Positions 8,990 through 31,844 of a DNA stretch of 33,406 nt are shown here, piece after piece (positions within the stretch are counted from its first letter, which is position 1; each line of letters begins with the position of its first letter). Both the position numbers and the translations under genes were made by a program. The notes beneath the pieces were generated by a model. That model had not been told where the DNA came from. It worked only from the letters and a program-made list of their open reading frames with translations, and made no database searches. Source of the DNA: Promethearchaeia archaeon (GTDB lineage: Archaea; Asgardarchaeota; Lokiarchaeia; Sigyniarchaeales; SOKP01). Where the stretch lies: the NCBI GenBank assembly GCA_046483985.1, contig JAWOCD010000013.1:1-33406 (forward strand). The letters are read 5' to 3'.

Positions 8990-9637
8990 TCAAACCAAAA
9001 TTAGTAGAATATTAAAAAATGAATGAGCCACTATACCAGGTAATAAAGAGTTATCGGAAAACTTGAACACGAGAGATAAAAGAACGCCAAAGCTAAAGTA
9101 ATACCCGAAAAAAGTAATAATGGTTGAGAGCGGGACTATAAACGGCGGAACATGATAAATTGCAAATATTAAGGACGATAAGATTATTCCAACGCCAGAA
9201 GGTAACTTATCTTCCAATTTTGACAGCATAAAGCCCCTGAAGAAGGCTTCTTCGCAAATACCCACCACAAAAACTTGCATAATAATCAAAATTATAATCT
9301 GCATTAGAGTTGGGGTTACGGGAGAGGTATTTATTACATTTTCTTCGGCTCTAACAATATATTCAGTCCCAAAAAGTTGCTCAACAATAAAATTCCTAAA
9401 AAAATTTGTAATATATCCACTGATCAAATAAAAAAGCAATCCTCCCAGTAACCCAAGCCCGATCCTCCGCAATCTTATCATAAGGGGGTTTCGTGCAAGC
9501 CTCAAACCCATATTTCTGAGCTCTTCTCGAAAAGTATGGTTTTCTATTCTTGCAGAAATCAACGGAGGGATAATGACAAAAAGAACTTCTAATAATGTTA
9601 ATCCAATTAATATCCAGGAATTGACGCCTAAATTCAT
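8990..9637 (-). CDS. CPBP/Abi (type II CAAX) intramembrane metalloprotease
   Basis: EEAFFRG, FAIYH and AHSFFN motifs all intact; multiple hydrophobic segments. Confidence 0.9.
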   Translation of the reverse strand: MNLGVNSWILIGLTLLEVLFVIIPPLISARIENHTFREELRNMGLRLARNPLMIRLRRIGLGLLGGLLFYLISGYITNFFRNFIVEQLFGTEYIVRAEENVINTSPVTPTLMQIIILIIMQVFVVGICEEAFFRGFMLSKLEDKLPSGVGIILSSLIFAIYHVPPFIVPLSTIITFFGYYFSFGVLLSLVFKFSDNSLLPGIVAHSFFNILLILV

Positions 9638-19799: not shown

Positions 19800-20900
19800 C
19801 TAAAGGAGCACCATACTTAATACTATTATGATATTATAAAGAACGCTCGCAATAATTGTATTATAAAGATTTCCATTGTATTCATAAAGCATCCCTAAAA
19901 GAAGAAAGGAAATGAAATTGACTACGAAAAATACTAAACCTAACGGTATTGAAAATAAGGCATAAAGAGCAGCATAGATTAAAGCTGTCAGGACAATAAC
20001 AACCCAAGTCCTCCCAAATTTTTCATTTAGTGTATTATGAAGAACACCCCGGAATACAAATTCAGTGGAAATGGCACCCAAGCCTAATAAAATAACCAAA
20101 AGAAGAATCATAACGGCATCCGCATTTTGGATCACTCGATATGTTTCATTGAGGTACGATTCCAGACCGAAAATATCAAATCCAGAAGCAAAAAATAGAT
20201 CTAAAACAAATTCATTGAGGTAATTCACCAAGACTAGGGCAAGTCCCCCAATTATTCCAATAATAAGGGCATTGGTTAACTTTTTTGAGCTTGAATGCAA
20301 ACCTATTTTAGATAAGTGGTGTTTATGGAACAGAATATACAAGATCGGATATAGTCCAAAAAACACTTCTGGAAGTTGAATGAGTAAAATCGAGGTCATA
20401 TCAAGCGCGAAAGTCGTTTGAAGAGGATCTTCCGGAGTAAGTGTAAACGATAAGAGGATGAATAATAATAGATTCACAGTGATGTAAATCAATATGGAAT
20501 TGCCAAATGCATTGTACCCTTCTTTTAGATTCCATTTGTCTTTCTTGACTCTAAGATTTTCCTCGAGTTCTAATTTTTTCTTATCGGTAAAAATTAATCC
20601 GGGCTGTTTTGGTTGCGATTTAACACTTTCTGGAACCGGTTCGAGTCGAGTATTACAAATAGGACACTGTTCCAAGACGTTTGAATTAATTATAGAACCG
20701 CAGCCAGGACAAATTCTCTGATATTTTCCGTCCTTTACCCTAATTTTTGATTCCTTTCTTTTTTTAATCCTTTTCGAGGATGGGGATTCTGAGCCCTTAA
20801 ATACCAGCCTCCCACATTTGGGACAATAAGGGTTATGTGGTTGAGTTTTCGCTCCACAATGTGGGCAAGATTCAACATTATGTTCTTTTTCATCATTCAT
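19800..20900 (-). CDS. Double zinc-ribbon plus CPBP-like membrane protein with degenerate catalytic motifs
   Basis: CPHC/CPKC and CPGC/CPIC ribbons; membrane domain with STEFVFRG, YAALY and ASVLYN at the CPBP motif positions. Confidence 0.8.
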   Translation of the reverse strand: MNDEKEHNVESCPHCGAKTQPHNPYCPKCGRLVFKGSESPSSKRIKKRKESKIRVKDGKYQRICPGCGSIINSNVLEQCPICNTRLEPVPESVKSQPKQPGLIFTDKKKLELEENLRVKKDKWNLKEGYNAFGNSILIYITVNLLLFILLSFTLTPEDPLQTTFALDMTSILLIQLPEVFFGLYPILYILFHKHHLSKIGLHSSSKKLTNALIIGIIGGLALVLVNYLNEFVLDLFFASGFDIFGLESYLNETYRVIQNADAVMILLLVILLGLGAISTEFVFRGVLHNTLNEKFGRTWVVIVLTALIYAALYALFSIPLGLVFFVVNFISFLLLGMLYEYNGNLYNTIIASVLYNIIIVLSMVLL

Positions 20901-25689: not shown

Positions 25690-25871
25690 TTCTTACCAAC
25701 TCATCAACTACTGGACTCTAGAAATTTTAATATGATATAATTGTTACGTTCTCTTAAGCATTTAGTTATTATAATCAAACTAAATTTTTATATTCGAATA
25801 TTTATATTTATTATATCAGAACCATAAAAAAAATTTAACATTCAAGAATACTTATACAAAAGTTGATATAT

Positions 25872-26555
25872 ATGGGCTTCTTTGATAAACTATTCAGCAA
25901 GGACAAGAAAACGCAAAAAAATGCTCAAGATGCGCTTGTTGGAAAGATTAAAGATTATAAGCGTCAAATATCGCTTAGAATTAAAGGTATGAATAAGAAA
26001 GCTACGGCGGCCCGCCATAATGCCAAAATTGCGATTAAAAGAGGAGAGGAAAAAACCGCAGAAACATATTTAGTTCAATTCAAGCAATATCAGAATTATG
26101 CAAACAACCTCAATAAAACAAGATTGAAACTGGATTCCTACCAAATGGCAATAGAAACGGGGGGAAATAACTTAGAGTTCAAAAGCCTTATGAAGGATGT
26201 TACAAATACATTAGAAAAAATTTCTCAAACTGCTGGTTCTACGGAGATCGGAGAATTAACAGCCTATGCAGATGAATATGCAGCTGATATCCATGAAGCC
26301 CAAGATATGATGGCAGGAGAACCGACTATTGATACGGGAATTGACGTTTCCGAAGAGATGAATAAATTACAAACCGAAGTTCTTTTGGATGAGAGTGGTT
26401 CCCTACCCGAAGTTCCAAGTGAAACAGAAGAGGGAAAAGAAGAATATATTACTGATTTAGATGCATTAGAATCAGAAAAAGGGAAAGAAGTTAAATCAAA
26501 GGAGCAGGTAAAGAAAGAAGTCGATAAGCTTAAGAAAGAACTTAATATTGAATAA
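25872..26555 (+). CDS. ESCRT-III / Snf7 family protein (Vps20/32/60-like)
   Basis: Amphipathic MGFFDKLF N-terminus, basic helical hairpin (AKIAIKRG...A..YL...K.Y), acidic C-terminal half, LPEVPS MIM2-like motif and a terminal helix. Confidence 0.82.
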   Translation: MGFFDKLFSKDKKTQKNAQDALVGKIKDYKRQISLRIKGMNKKATAARHNAKIAIKRGEEKTAETYLVQFKQYQNYANNLNKTRLKLDSYQMAIETGGNNLEFKSLMKDVTNTLEKISQTAGSTEIGELTAYADEYAADIHEAQDMMAGEPTIDTGIDVSEEMNKLQTEVLLDESGSLPEVPSETEEGKEEYITDLDALESEKGKEVKSKEQVKKEVDKLKKELNIE

Positions 26556-27709: not shown

Positions 27710-29848
27710 TTATGAAAAGTATTCTCTAACCTTATCCTTATCCTTACAAGAATCAGTGTTAATTGATTCTCTTAGATTTTCAAGCTCTTGGTCAATAAGA
27801 TAAACTTGTCTTTTTATATTATTGTATTGTCGATTGTATTTGTTTCTTGACATGTTACCTTTTTTGAATTTTCGATTTAAGCTTTCTAGATTCTTCATTT
27901 TATTATGTCTTTTTTTGCGCAATAGGAGAGTTTTTTTTCGTAAGTTTTCTTGTGGATTAAAATTATATTCCCTTGGTCTTGGCTGGGAGTGATTTGAAAA
28001 CTGAGAATGAAACTCTGGAGCCAAATGATTTTTATTAAATCCATTTACACCAGAATTTCCTATAGGAAAGCCATCACTCCTCTCAGAAAATTGGGATGAA
28101 TCGAATTCTTGGTCATTATGGACTTTTCTCAATTTCTTCATTAATACAGAACGCTCATCAAAATAATCGTCTCGGTCAGTAAAGTCATTATTCTTAAATT
28201 CATGTTCTTCACCCGTTTTCTCGAAGGGTTCATAATTCTGAAACCGTGAAGGATCGTGGGGATCAGAATAGTATTTATTTGCTTTACTGTATCTCGGCGA
28301 ATTGTGCAGATGATAGGGTGGTCTGATATCTTCCGTTTGTCTGGGTGGATTAAAATGGGAATTCATTTGACCCGATTGAGCTTTCCTATTAGCATGAGAT
28401 CCATTAGCATTAGAGGGGTAATCTTTCCTCCTTCCATGAATTTGAGAGGGTTGATTCACAGAATAATGATTCGATGTTTGTTCTGATTGATAAGAAGGTT
28501 CACGATTATATTGTTGGCCTTGATAAGGTACGGAGGGGCTAAAGGAAGGAGTCCGTTTAAATTGCTGAGTCTGATGATTAAAGGATTGATTTTCTGATCC
28601 AGAAGAGTTGATATTTGCCTGTATCTGGGGATGAGGCGTATTTTTCTGATTAAATTTACATTTTAAGCTAAAGAATTTATTTATACCTTCTTCTATATAA
28701 CTTATGAGATTATTTACATCCAAGGACATCTCGTGTAGATTATCAGCAGCAATCTCATCAAATTGGACCCTATCCTCAAAATCCTTAGCAAGGAGGATAT
28801 ATTCAACCACCGTGGGTATGCTATCAGATGAGATGGAAAATTCATACTTACCGTAAGAAAATTCAACGATTAGTTTTTTGAATAATAAATTTCCTCCTTC
28901 TTTAAGTTTAATTAAGTCATTTACCGGCGCCTTAAAAATCAATTCGTATTTCTTATTTATCAAGCCATATTTTCGAACAAATGAAAGGTCCATATTAGTG
29001 ATAAATAAGATCCCACTATTTCTCTTAAATCTATCTTCATCATTTGTTAATTTTGTTTTGATCGCAAAGATAGGTTTTTCGTTAGCCGCTAAATTCAAGA
29101 ATCTTTTGTAAGAGCTGAACAGATCATCGACCTTCTGAATGAAAGGTAACTTTTCTTCAATTGCTTCTAATTTCTCGCTAAATCCATCTAACTTTTTAGA
29201 AATAAAGGTTTGAATTGTATCATAACTCTTTTGTAAGTTCGCGAGAATACCTTCTATGATTCTGATATTTGAATTCGGTTGATTATAGATATCAAAGAAA
29301 TATTCAATATTCGTTGAGATATAACGAAAATGGGTTTTTATTTTCTCAAGAATATTTTCCTTCAGGTAAATTATAAATTGATAAATCTTAAGTAAATTCG
29401 GTTCAATATTTGGATAATGATAACATCTTATTGGAGGTTCCCTGACTTTTTGAACCCTTTGACGGACTGAATCCGTTTCATTAATAATCTCTTGAAAGGG
29501 GTCGGCAAGTGCCCGGGTTTTTTTAATTAAATCCAGAAATTGCTTCTCCAAGGTTTCTTTCTTCTCAAATACGTTAATGATTTCTCGGGAACCGCACTTT
29601 GGACAGGATTTTATCTTTTCGTTGAGCTTAAAAATTTGAGAACTACCACAATCTTTACATATTTTACCATCTGGATCATTTTGTTCTATCTTTCTTGAAT
29701 CACATTTTTGGCACACAAAAATTATCTTCTCTTCATCTTGCAAACAATCAGAACAACAAGTCATACCACATTCTTCACAATAATATGCAAAATCAACTTT
29801 TCTGTTACAGAATCGGCACTTCTGAGGCTTATTTATCTGTTCTGACAT
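27710..29848 (-). CDS. Multidomain hypothetical protein: Cys-rich Zn finger, coiled coil, PH/GRAM-like domain, low-complexity region, C-terminal helical hairpin
   Basis: Six CxxC pairs in the first ~85 aa, a heptad-rich region, a 'GILFITN.DLSF' PH-like strand pattern, a Q/N/S/P-rich region and a basic C-terminal helix pair; likely ATG at 29848. Confidence 0.8.
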   Translation of the reverse strand: MSEQINKPQKCRFCNRKVDFAYYCEECGMTCCSDCLQDEEKIIFVCQKCDSRKIEQNDPDGKICKDCGSSQIFKLNEKIKSCPKCGSREIINVFEKKETLEKQFLDLIKKTRALADPFQEIINETDSVRQRVQKVREPPIRCYHYPNIEPNLLKIYQFIIYLKENILEKIKTHFRYISTNIEYFFDIYNQPNSNIRIIEGILANLQKSYDTIQTFISKKLDGFSEKLEAIEEKLPFIQKVDDLFSSYKRFLNLAANEKPIFAIKTKLTNDEDRFKRNSGILFITNMDLSFVRKYGLINKKYELIFKAPVNDLIKLKEGGNLLFKKLIVEFSYGKYEFSISSDSIPTVVEYILLAKDFEDRVQFDEIAADNLHEMSLDVNNLISYIEEGINKFFSLKCKFNQKNTPHPQIQANINSSGSENQSFNHQTQQFKRTPSFSPSVPYQGQQYNREPSYQSEQTSNHYSVNQPSQIHGRRKDYPSNANGSHANRKAQSGQMNSHFNPPRQTEDIRPPYHLHNSPRYSKANKYYSDPHDPSRFQNYEPFEKTGEEHEFKNNDFTDRDDYFDERSVLMKKLRKVHNDQEFDSSQFSERSDGFPIGNSGVNGFNKNHLAPEFHSQFSNHSQPRPREYNFNPQENLRKKTLLLRKKRHNKMKNLESLNRKFKKGNMSRNKYNRQYNNIKRQVYLIDQELENLRESINTDSCKDKDKVREYFS

Positions 29849-30119
29849 TTTTTTTAAACACAACCGCATTTGAGAGATAATTTTTATTCAAATAAAGAAA
29901 AAGAAAACTATTATTTATTTAAGAATGTTATTTATGTATTACTTCGATATTAGGATTTTAGTTTGATAAACGTACGATTTTATCAAATGTTTTATAAGAC
30001 TTTTGGTAAAAAAAAGCCAAATAATAAGAAATGGAACTAAAAAATCCTTAAAATCACATCGAAAAAAGATCAAGATTTTCTTTCTGATTCTCCCCTTGAT
30101 ATGAGAGGAGAATTCTAGG

Positions 30120-30209
30120 GGCGATTACAAGGGAAAGAACCACGAAGAGGATGATAAATAAACCTTGGACAATTTAGTAGTGTGCTGATAATTCTGCAAT
30201 ACTCATTAA
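30120..30209 (+). pseudogene. Possible relic of an HNH-type endonuclease
   Basis: One frame reads ...EDDK*TLDNLVVC**FCNTH*, resembling the 'Y.LDN.V.CC..CN' His-Me finger motif with stop codons at Y/C positions. Confidence 0.3.
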
Positions 30210-30300
30210 TCAAATTTCATTATGATTTCAATTTGAATAAGAATTAGCTTAAAAATATTTATATCCTTTTTATATGCAAGTTTTCTTCTGTTTTGAGTTC

Positions 30301-30876
30301 TCAAACATATACAGCTTTGCATTTTCCCTTCTTAATAGCACGTTTAATATCGATTAATGAAAAGATTTTTTCTCCAAATTGCGTTGCAATTGTGTTTAAT
30401 TGATCTTTCGAATGTGAATCACTCCCCCCAGTTGTGGGTATATCCATTATCTGAGAAGCTTCTTTTGCTAGTTGATTTGCCTTCTTTCCGATAGCTCCAT
30501 TCAGTTCAATTGCGTCAAAATCGTAATTATATACACTTTCTCCAAAAGCACAATGACGCTGTGAAAAGGGATGGGCACAAACAGCAACAGCGTCTTGTTC
30601 ATGAATAAATTGAAGGATTCGGCGGCCATTTAAATCCTTAGAGGGAAGACGTTTTAATCCATATGCTATAATATCACCCTGGTTACACCTCAGTTCTACA
30701 CCAAAATGAACTTGAAATCCATAAAAACTCATCTGCTTGATGGGTTTTAAAACCCAATGATCGGTTATACAAATTCCGTCAAGACGGGGCGATAAATTAT
30801 TATATAATTGTTGCTCTGAAAGAATAGAGCAAGAGGAGCGGCCAGAAATATGGATATGCATATCAATAAGCGACAT
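30301..30876 (-). CDS. PHP-family metal-dependent phosphoesterase
   Basis: DMHIH, GICITDH, GVE, AHPF, DAIELN and GGSDSH motifs. Confidence 0.92.
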   Translation of the reverse strand: MSLIDMHIHISGRSSCSILSEQQLYNNLSPRLDGICITDHWVLKPIKQMSFYGFQVHFGVELRCNQGDIIAYGLKRLPSKDLNGRRILQFIHEQDAVAVCAHPFSQRHCAFGESVYNYDFDAIELNGAIGKKANQLAKEASQIMDIPTTGGSDSHSKDQLNTIATQFGEKIFSLIDIKRAIKKGKCKAVYV

Positions 30877-31009
30877 TTGAGTAATATGTAAGATAAATTG
30901 TTTTTATATTATGATGAACTTCTTTCCTTGATTTGGTTTTTTATCTAAACTCGCTATGTGATAAGATGTGCGCGAAAATTAAAATTTGATGATTATAATC
31001 TATTTAAAT

Positions 31010-31471
31010 TTATATCTTTTGGAGAGTATTTCCTCCTTGTTTCTTAGCCTTTTTTAAAGATTTATAAGCCAAATATATAGTGGGATGTTTTAAAAATTCT
31101 TGTTTCTTATGAACTTTCAGAGGCTTTATTTGTGAAATATCTCCTCGAGCTATCCCCACGCTCAAACTCGTGGGCGCATTTAATTTTTGAGCTAGTTCCA
31201 GAATGTCCTTTCTTAATCGATTAAGTAGTGTTATTACGGTCTCAGTATCTTGAGAAAATAAAAGAATGAATTCCTCGGTTCCTTCTGTTTCATTTAAACC
31301 CCATAGAGGTGTAGCTTGAAAATGAGTAATATATCTTTTTATTTTATTCGTCATAAGACGGGTTATTTGGTTTGGGGAATAACGTGACCAGCCCATCACA
31401 TGCATGCAATCTTGAAAATTATCTAAGTCGGCGAATACAACTGTCCCTTTATTTGAAAAACGTGCATTCAT
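31010..31471 (-). CDS. Stand-alone GGDEF-like (nucleotide cyclase palm fold) protein with a GTEEF motif
   Basis: VFADLDNF, EGTEEFILLF, TSLSVGIA and LAYKSLKKAKKQGGN match the GGDEF-domain motif order. Confidence 0.72.
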   Translation of the reverse strand: MNARFSNKGTVVFADLDNFQDCMHVMGWSRYSPNQITRLMTNKIKRYITHFQATPLWGLNETEGTEEFILLFSQDTETVITLLNRLRKDILELAQKLNAPTSLSVGIARGDISQIKPLKVHKKQEFLKHPTIYLAYKSLKKAKKQGGNTLQKI

Positions 31472-31550: not shown

Positions 31551-31844
31551 TTATTTGATGATTTTTACTCGTGTCCCTAATGCTTGACCCGGAACCCCGC
31601 CCTCCTTAAAATGAGCACGAACAGCTCCGCTGTTCCCATGTGCTCTGCTGATTTTACCTTTTAACTCTTTTCCAGTTTCACTAACCCATACTACCGTCCT
31701 TCCTATTAACTTATTTGCTTCGTTTCTGGTTTCAATTTCTGGAAAAACAAGAATACATTGTTTTGGATGGATCGTATGCCTTCCTTGGCGGTAATTGCTG
31801 ATTATTCCTTTCATTCCAATGATGTCTAATTTATTTGATGCCAT
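31551..31844 (-). CDS. rpl35ae: 50S ribosomal protein L35Ae (eL33)
   Basis: KGII.NYRQG...A.KLIGR.V.W...GKI.RAHGNSGAVRA.F...PGQALG. Confidence 0.96.
   Translation of the reverse strand: MASNKLDIIGMKGIISNYRQGRHTIHPKQCILVFPEIETRNEANKLIGRTVVWVSETGKELKGKISRAHGNSGAVRAHFKEGGVPGQALGTRVKIIK

Follow-up and report, generated by a model that had tools for sequence, protein, structure and literature searches.

We analysed a stretch of 33,406 nucleotides from a Promethearchaeia archaeon (assembly GCA_046483985.1, contig JAWOCD010000013.1, positions 1 to 33,406; hereafter the window), concentrating on a small stand-alone protein with GGDEF-like motifs and on the PHP-family phosphoesterase gene that follows it. 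The shorthand GG is used both for this 153-residue protein and for its archaeal family, and labels beginning with f, g, G, L and P denote the families, genera, genomes, loci and proteins sampled. The features of the locus are as follows.

30301..30876, minus strand: PHP-family metal-dependent phosphoesterase (PHP), a 191-residue open reading frame (ORF) matching PHP_C, with the ligands of the trinuclear site intact
30877..31009, minus strand: GG–PHP spacer of 133 nt, with T-runs after the GG stop codon and a TATA-like box before the PHP ATG (sequence inspection)
31010..31471, minus strand: GG, a stand-alone palm-domain protein of the GGDEF superfamily, a 153-residue ORF without a Pfam model
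31028..31048, minus strand: A142-K143-K-Q-G-G-N148, the counterpart of GGDEF ‘AK..GRN’, in which K143 is invariant and a predicted phosphate contact
31268..31282, minus strand: G64-T65-E66-E67-F68, the counterpart of GG(D/E)EF, with G, T, E and E invariant in the family
31361..31393, minus strand: the family-specific motif G27-W-x-x-Y-x-P-N34-x-x-T37, occupying the segment of the GGDEF guanine-binding ‘N..GH..GD’
31421..31429, minus strand: D15-L16-D17 in the first β-strand, an Asp motif predicted to bind metal, which does not vary within the family and aligns to the DLD/DxD of the GGDEF chain 3ezu
31551..31844, minus strand: rpl35ae, the ribosomal protein L35ae gene upstream of GG (97 residues; NF003326, 98.6 bits against a cut-off of 85)

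The ORF map places rpl35ae, GG and PHP exactly where the original prediction had them, all three on one strand, with gaps of 79 nt between rpl35ae and GG and 133 nt between GG and PHP. GG is a real gene, since orthologues of 72–75% identity sit in syntenic contigs, the motif set is conserved family-wide, and the AlphaFold2 model, calculated with the family alignment as input, reaches a predicted local distance difference test score (pLDDT) of 94.2. Within the spacer, an A/T-rich box, ‘ATAATATAAAAA’, lies about 20–30 nt ahead of the PHP ATG, so placed that PHP may have a promoter of its own. The adjacency of rpl35ae is conserved inside family f1 only, and L35ae is probably not a functional partner of GG. 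The remainder of the window is ordinary housekeeping DNA, with genes for Snf7, DHQS-II, GH57 and an M20 peptidase among others.

The motifs named in the original prediction were all located at the positions it gave: DLDNF (D15–F19), GWSRYSPN (G27–N34), GTEEF (31282–31268), SLSVGIA (residues 102–108) and AKKQGGN. Counted over Asgard and Thermoproteota members at 22–47% identity, the residues D15, L16, D17, N34, T37, G58, G64, T65, E66, E67, A135, L139 and K143 are invariant, and conservation of G27, Y31 and P33 reaches 90% or more in the family alignments. The acidic residues D15, D17, E66 and E67 align to the DLD and DE of 3ezu, and Thr stands in place of the second glycine of GGDEF, T65 being present in 30/30 aligned members. 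In the same profile alignment, GW falls opposite GH and PN opposite GD, with a two-residue insertion; the column of the guanine-binding Asn is variable (M23 in GG) and that of the Asp is held by the invariant N34. The guanine-recognising pair corresponds to N335 and D344 in PleD numbering. No RxxD I-site precedes GTEE in GG, where the local sequence reads N-E-T-E-G-T-E-E. The expectation of a single-domain protein that keeps its catalytic acids, has an altered guanine-binding segment and lacks both a sensor domain and an I-site is thus borne out, and judged from the alignments the conservation is the pattern of a putatively active two-metal nucleotidyltransferase.

Structural comparison of the model returned GGDEF domains as the best matches, at VIA-align Z scores of 13.1–13.5 (13.5, 13.4 and 13.4 to 5euh, 6eib and 6ttr, over 127–130 residues at a root-mean-square deviation, rmsd, of 2.8–3.4) and a Foldseek E-value of about 5e-6. 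The stand-alone mCpol protein OptS (PDB 9mnr) scored Z 12.9, with an rmsd of 2.5 Å over 110 residues. Class III cyclases (1cs4, 5mbg and 3r5g; PF00211) scored Z 11–12 in fold and gave no sequence match, Y-family and Cas10 palms lie at about 11 (10.8–11.2 for the Y-family polymerase palms), and GTP cyclohydrolase III (GCH III; 2qv6) at 10.9. At the sequence level, alignment of the family profile to the GGDEF chains 3ezu and 4zve extends from one end to the other. The window GG itself has no Pfam match at E ≤ 1 and scores 21.2 bits against TIGR00254, under the cut-off of 37.4, while among 26 family members PF00990 is matched by only ten (best E 4.5e-5), Cas10-Cmr2_palm2 weakly by three, and mCpol PF18182 and GCH_III PF05165 by none at E ≤ 1. 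Language-model feature neighbours comprised mCpol as the nearest named cluster (0.92), GdpP-GGDEF (0.91) and single-domain GCH_III-like clusters (0.89).

Because GG belongs, by the tests applied, to none of GCH_III, Thg1 and mCpol, it is a distinct archaeal branch, nearest to GGDEF, within the GGDEF/CRISPR-polymerase palm superfamily. With GGDEF proteins (PF00990/TIGR00254; PleD, WspR, DgcB) it shares the fold of the whole protein (Z 12–13.5, ~130 residues) and the motif order, that is, DxDxF in strand 1, a G-x-E-E-F hairpin, an S-x-G-hydrophobic strand and AK..G.N; its weak sequence matches also point to this family. It differs from them in falling under every curated cut-off, in the invariant Thr for the second Gly, in the unconserved guanine-binding Asn and the change of Asp to an invariant Asn within GW..Y.PN..T, in having neither RxxD I-site, N-terminal helix nor sensor fusion, and in being confined to archaea, in genomes without EAL or PilZ. 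With mCpol (PF18182; Panoptes OptS, 9mnr) it has in common a stand-alone minimal palm of similar size, whereas GG reads GTEE rather than GGDD, lacks PF18182 matches in all 26 members, and lies in an archaeal housekeeping context, in which neither effector nor defence genes adjoin it and PADLOC gave no match.

GCH III (PF05165; MJ0145, 2qv6) is itself archaeal, has the palm fold and acts on GTP with metal ions, but GG is half its length, one domain of 153 residues against ~250 residues in two halves, and hhalign against the GCH_III alignment gave a probability of 4.7%. Six of the seven GG-positive Thermoproteota genomes sampled (G400, G415, G423, G447, G471 and G495) moreover hold a separate, full GCH_III above cut-off, so that GG co-occurs with genuine genes of that family. 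Membership in GCH III, which the original prediction had named as the outcome that would overturn it, is therefore not supported. Thg1 and Thg1-like 3′–5′ RNA polymerases (PF04446) belong to the same palm superfamily and share a tRNA context, but the stretch aligned by hhalign is limited to the first strand and the D..F motif, and GG has no C-terminal Thg1 domain. As a replacement for Thg1, GG was rejected on an hhalign probability of 0.15% against nine Asgard Thg1-like proteins and the lack of a Pfam match; Thg1 occurs in 16/400 and GG in 30/400 Asgard genomes, with both in two, a distribution that is not complementary, and Hyperthermus holds both. One of these two Asgard genomes, G397, carries on contig C104 (6050–6634 and 10818–11201) a Thg1-like gene about 4 kb from a PHP-family gene.

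An exhaustive phmmer search with GG over 1.8 billion representatives gave 40 hits, and a profile search built on Asgard and Thermoproteota members gave 257 clusters, all of ~140–180 residues and none with a precomputed Pfam domain; the names attached, where given, are ‘hypothetical’ or ‘GGDEF domain-containing’. Cultured organisms are represented by Hyperthermus butylicus, Pyrolobus fumarii (Pyrfu_0834) and Staphylothermus hellenicus. The gene is present at one copy per genome in 30/400 Asgard (Promethearchaeota) and 35/401 Thermoproteota species genomes sampled, and the median isoelectric point (pI) of the family is 9.1, with a range of 5.6–9.8. A dedicated search found no longer fused forms, which is weak evidence, and the sole known fusion is to a Toprim domain. 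Five of the 40 phmmer hits, of 850–1570 residues with five to seven stretches (P0028, P0030, P0032, P0036 and P0041), considered as tandem GG proteins, proved to be FG-GAP repeat proteins and hence false positives.

Proteins of this kind were noticed in 2005 and again in 2010 but never characterised. Galperin (2005; PMC1183210) set aside MK0296 and APE1864 as ‘truncated’ GGDEF sequences, and Anantharaman, Iyer and Aravind (2010; PMC2904730) predicted that the archaeal GGDEF relatives are active yet probably take no part in signalling, and considered that some GGDEF domains might act as RNA-specific nucleotidyltransferases. MK0296 and APE1864 are described there as small, with three acidic residues kept and no signalling-domain partners (PMC1183210, PMC2904730), and APE1864 comes from Aeropyrum, a member of the Desulfurococcales, an order rich in GG. 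Compared by description and taxonomy only, the GG family is probably the same as these relatives. Neither publication mentions a linkage to PHP, TgtA or Toprim, or Asgard members, and no functional work on the family turned up in our literature search.

The neighbouring PHP protein is, as the original prediction had it, intact. It scores 39.2 bits against PHP_C (cut-off 21.3), its metal ligands H7, H9, D39, H40, E61, H92, H102, D153 and H155 are invariant or nearly so across 13 orthologues, and its model has a pLDDT of 95.9. Its closest structures are PsfC (Z 19.4), TM0559 (19.3), BVU_3505, BAD_1165, EndoQ (17.7 over 185 residues) and RNase AM (15.1), and the best sequence-profile match is the 5′–3′ exoribonuclease 7ug9, with 2anu and 9etk also matched. 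As its nearest structures and best profile match lie there, the protein falls within the PHP branch of nucleic-acid/nucleotide phosphodiesterases (EndoQ, RNase AM, TM0559). The likeness to the TM0559, PsfC, EndoQ and RNase AM (TrpH-YciV) proteins extends over nearly the full length at Z 15–19 and includes all metal ligands; the difference is that the window PHP is shorter, at 191 residues, and carries no extra domains.

Conservation of the GG–PHP adjacency extends beyond close kin. PHP lies immediately downstream of GG, on the same strand, in 23/66 loci on the GG tree, and these loci fall into three separate clades: Asgard f18 (12 rows), f1 together with f3 (10 rows, the flanks differing in f3) and the G573 lineage, from the Thermoproteota sample (one row, with TgtA). 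A fourth case is the Toprim–GG fusion P0039 (locus L096), with a PHP gene overlapping its downstream end. The GG stop overlaps the PHP start by 4 nt in L005, L094 and L120, and other relatives have the two genes 11 nt apart. Inside f1, GG and PHP are inverted together with respect to rpl35ae and a 700-residue zinc-ribbon gene, genera g4 and g13 showing the inversion relative to rpl35ae. The proviso attached to the original prediction, that the PHP adjacency be conserved, thus agrees with its recurrence in at least four GG lineages.

Some loci depart from this arrangement. Relatives of 74% identity (L001–L004) have a gene for a 276-residue Rce1-like (CPBP) membrane protease between GG and PHP (6527–7357 in L001); the window has no Rce1-like gene at this place, and its Rce1-like genes lie at 19800–20900 and ~9011–9271. 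At L059 (13450–13785; G274, genus g13), GG is truncated at the N-terminus, matching residues 32–136 only, and adjoins a 717-residue zinc-ribbon gene 12.6 kb from the PHP–rpl35ae pair on the same contig; it is likely a rearranged, decaying copy. At L055 (5818–7136; G047, f15), a PHP paralogue of 29% identity shares 4 nt with the end of a gene for a nucleotidyltransferase of the Pol-beta superfamily, in divergent orientation to GG; this is a second pairing of nucleotidyltransferase and PHP, on an unrelated transferase fold.

A second, unexpected partner is TgtA. The 3′ end of tgtA overlaps GG in Asgard f21 (six genomes), in f8 and in the G573 lineage. Its product, of 535–545 residues, is a tRNA guanosine(15) transglycosylase (TIGR00432, 547–572 bits against a cut-off of 350), and no other copy in these genomes exceeds the cut-off; no PUA match was found in the TgtA copies adjoining GG. 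In G573 and in P0059, a relative of 89% identity (loci L094 and L120), the overlapping gene order is Lsm–TgtA–GG–PHP, which unites the TgtA and PHP linkages in one operon. On the GG tree, members linked to TgtA branch close to the base of the Thermoproteota half, which makes plausible an ancestral TgtA–GG–PHP cluster that decayed differently by lineage. In the fusion P0039, a PRK04017-type Toprim, of the small archaeal RNase M5-like group, is joined to a true GG domain (hhalign 99.4%) that reads GTEQ, not GTEE.

Elsewhere in Thermoproteota the commonest neighbour is the TATA-binding protein (TBP; 12/30 loci), with a Metallophos phosphoesterase in five, an RsmB/F-type methyltransferase in four and a radical-SAM gene in three; two further loci have a radical-SAM gene together with a small RrnaAD-like methyltransferase. 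The Desulfurococcales-type loci L010, L121 and L122 show GG adjoined by a small methyltransferase (weak RrnaAD, faint DOT1), a 343-residue radical-SAM protein (weakly MoaA-like) and an 80-residue ORF; the side on which this methyltransferase cluster lies varies by genome, with Metallophos and TBP on the opposite side of GG. In f6, the gene next to GG is RadA. A 320-residue gene overlapping GG in f32, considered as a TgtA, has no family match and no similarity to TgtA. In the window’s own genome, tgtA is found elsewhere (G000:C50, L095 4258–8085, minus strand), in an operon of overlapping genes for, in order, an AAA_18 kinase-like protein, TgtA, DUF371 and a Trm5/TYW2 methyltransferase. The 150-residue ORF after this tgtA was considered as a hidden GG paralogue and rejected, being DUF371 without similarity to GG; DUF371 here fills the slot after tgtA where other lineages have GG.

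Indicators of signalling were looked for and not found. No sensor, receptor or effector gene was found as a conserved neighbour of GG among the loci examined, PADLOC gave no hits for GG, PHP or the other neighbours, and the window’s own genome (97% complete), searched with GGDEF, EAL, PilZ, Thg1 and GCH_III models, gave no match. At L008 (4883–6462), the locus of the metagenomic Asgard relative P0009 (40% identical), the last 4 nt of a gene for a 373-residue HisKA/HATPase_c histidine kinase lie within GG, and no PHP is nearby.

Taken together, the data favour, tentatively and at somewhat under even chances, a GG that is an active minimal nucleotidyltransferase working with the PHP phosphodiesterase in RNA- or tRNA-linked nucleotide chemistry. 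As the two-metal carboxylates D15/D17 and E66/E67 and the phosphate-binding K143 are kept, GG most likely binds a nucleoside triphosphate (NTP) with Mg and would perform nucleotidyl transfer. Cyclic di-GMP (c-di-GMP) is an unlikely product, because the alignments indicate that GG has lost the residues with which diguanylate cyclases read guanine, along with their I-site. GG would add or join nucleotides on an RNA end, or make a short oligonucleotide, and PHP would then cleave the phosphodiester corresponding to that product. The substrate setting would most likely be RNA or tRNA metabolism, a role that we rank ahead of signalling because the partners are TgtA, Lsm, Toprim and a PHP resembling RNase AM and EndoQ.

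Several points weigh against this interpretation. The sister genomes G275, G163 and G162 have a PHP orthologue at this position but no GG, and genes of the PHP family are common whether or not GG is present: they occur in 106/400 Asgard genomes and, in Thermoproteota, in 5/5 GG-positive and 4/5 GG-negative genomes. Phyletic co-occurrence of GG and PHP was accordingly discarded as uninformative evidence, PHP being present in GG-negative genomes as well. Related genomes are not independent observations, and 29/30 Thermoproteota loci have neither PHP nor TgtA adjoining GG. In the window itself, the 133-nt spacer with its T-runs and TATA-like box leaves co-transcription of GG and PHP unproven, as the caution over an operon in the original prediction had anticipated. 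A 153-residue palm without fingers or thumb has no obvious means to hold an RNA substrate, and the closest characterised relatives, GGDEF and mCpol, all make cyclic di- or oligonucleotides and not RNA extensions. The RNA theme may be partly chance, RNA and translation genes being common in archaeal genomes, and the histidine-kinase coupling of P0009, although the sole signalling-type neighbour observed, points in another direction. Prediction of a GG–PHP complex with alignments scored 0.00, which amounts to no answer and weighs neither way.

The original prediction had proposed a second-messenger make/break pair, and this reading ranks second, after the RNA or tRNA role; we regard it as rather unlikely. 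Here, GG dimers would constitutively cyclise NTPs, in the manner of the mCpol OptS, to a cyclic dinucleotide or oligonucleotide distinct from c-di-GMP, which PHP would degrade. The closest folds and sequences among characterised proteins are cyclic-nucleotide synthases, with mCpol giving the lowest rmsd, the nearest feature neighbours are mCpol and GdpP-GGDEF, and the invariant catalytic residues, the mCpol-like stand-alone architecture and the conserved phosphoesterase partner would all suit such a pair, as would the translational coupling of one relative to a HisKA/HATPase gene and the Metallophos phosphoesterase that several Thermoproteota loci have no more than two genes away from GG. The proposal is nonetheless weakened by the recurrent partners, which are TgtA, Lsm and Toprim instead of any conserved sensor, receptor or effector, by the lack of a defence-system match, by the single-copy occurrence of GG in housekeeping surroundings, by the failure of the mCpol Pfam model to match any member, and by PHP, which persists without GG and belongs to a branch known for nucleic-acid and nucleotide phosphodiesterases and not for cyclic-dinucleotide phosphodiesterases. 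Slightly less probable again is a version native to archaea (Asgard and Thermoproteota), with GG as a constitutive, mCpol-like minimal cyclase whose non-guanine cyclic or linear dinucleotide is degraded by PHP and possibly reports tRNA or RNA status via TgtA.

The other explanations are less probable still. A non-catalytic GG, an RRM-like subunit that senses NTPs or binds RNA and influences partners such as TgtA or PHP, would suit the very small domain, the basic median pI, the missing PUA match in the adjoining TgtA copies and the GTEQ of the Toprim-fused member; strict invariance of both acidic motifs and of K143 across two phyla is what is expected of an enzyme, and the pI varies widely within the family, which makes this reading improbable. 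We give marginally less credence to an enzyme of the GCH III type working on GTP or another NTP, for example one that supplies or recycles the purine or 7-deazapurine intermediates used by TgtA, PHP serving as the phosphatase. The tgtA linkage would fit a deazaguanine-pathway role, and both the palm fold and the GCH_III-like feature clusters are compatible with it, but the profile evidence and the single ~150-residue domain speak against it, and most GG-positive Thermoproteota genomes already hold GCH_III elsewhere, while the window’s own genome has GG and no GCH_III match. Last of all, and very improbable, is a DNA-repair module in which an EndoQ-like PHP nicks damaged DNA and GG is a mini-palm gap-filling or terminal nucleotidyltransferase. 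The match of PHP to the EndoQ nuclease domain, that of GG to Y-family palms, the Toprim fusion and the RadA gene of f6 agree with this idea, but PHP lacks the Zn-finger and C-terminal DNA-binding parts of EndoQ (191 against ~400 residues), GG has no fingers, thumb or little finger, repair genes do not recur as neighbours, and the tgtA and Lsm links point to RNA.

Archaea are regarded as lacking GGDEF-type nucleotide chemistry. A catalytically intact-looking mini-GGDEF family that spans hyperthermophilic Crenarchaeota to Asgard archaea bears on this view, and also on the proposed RNA-acting ancestor of the GGDEF, Thg1 and Cas10 polymerases. Were GG to make an archaea-native messenger, it would represent the first GGDEF-type second-messenger system of archaeal origin; were it a minimal palm enzyme of tRNA or RNA metabolism, that would be equally new. 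The conserved partnerships with the PHP phosphodiesterase, with TgtA and with a fused Toprim domain name concrete candidate substrates, and the members in cultured Pyrolobus, Hyperthermus and Staphylothermus make the question directly testable.

Further features flank the locus. Relatives carry a conserved 243-residue gene of no known family between PHP and the ~720-residue zinc-ribbon gene. In the window, a remnant of it lies in the 432-nt gap at 29870–30300, namely at 30066–30173 (minus strand; residues 11–46, 47% identity, E 3e-6) with a short piece at 30009–30032, and looks like a decayed pseudogene. The adjacent zinc-ribbon gene (27710–29869, minus strand) encodes a 719-residue protein with N-terminal zinc-ribbon motifs and a long low-complexity C-terminal half rich in Q, N, S and P; it has no confident family and is conserved beside the locus across f1, at 666–753 residues in relatives. 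At 25863–26555 (plus strand), a Snf7/ESCRT-III gene (53.9 bits) stands beside a Meth_synt_2-like gene, and this pair flanks the locus in relatives too.

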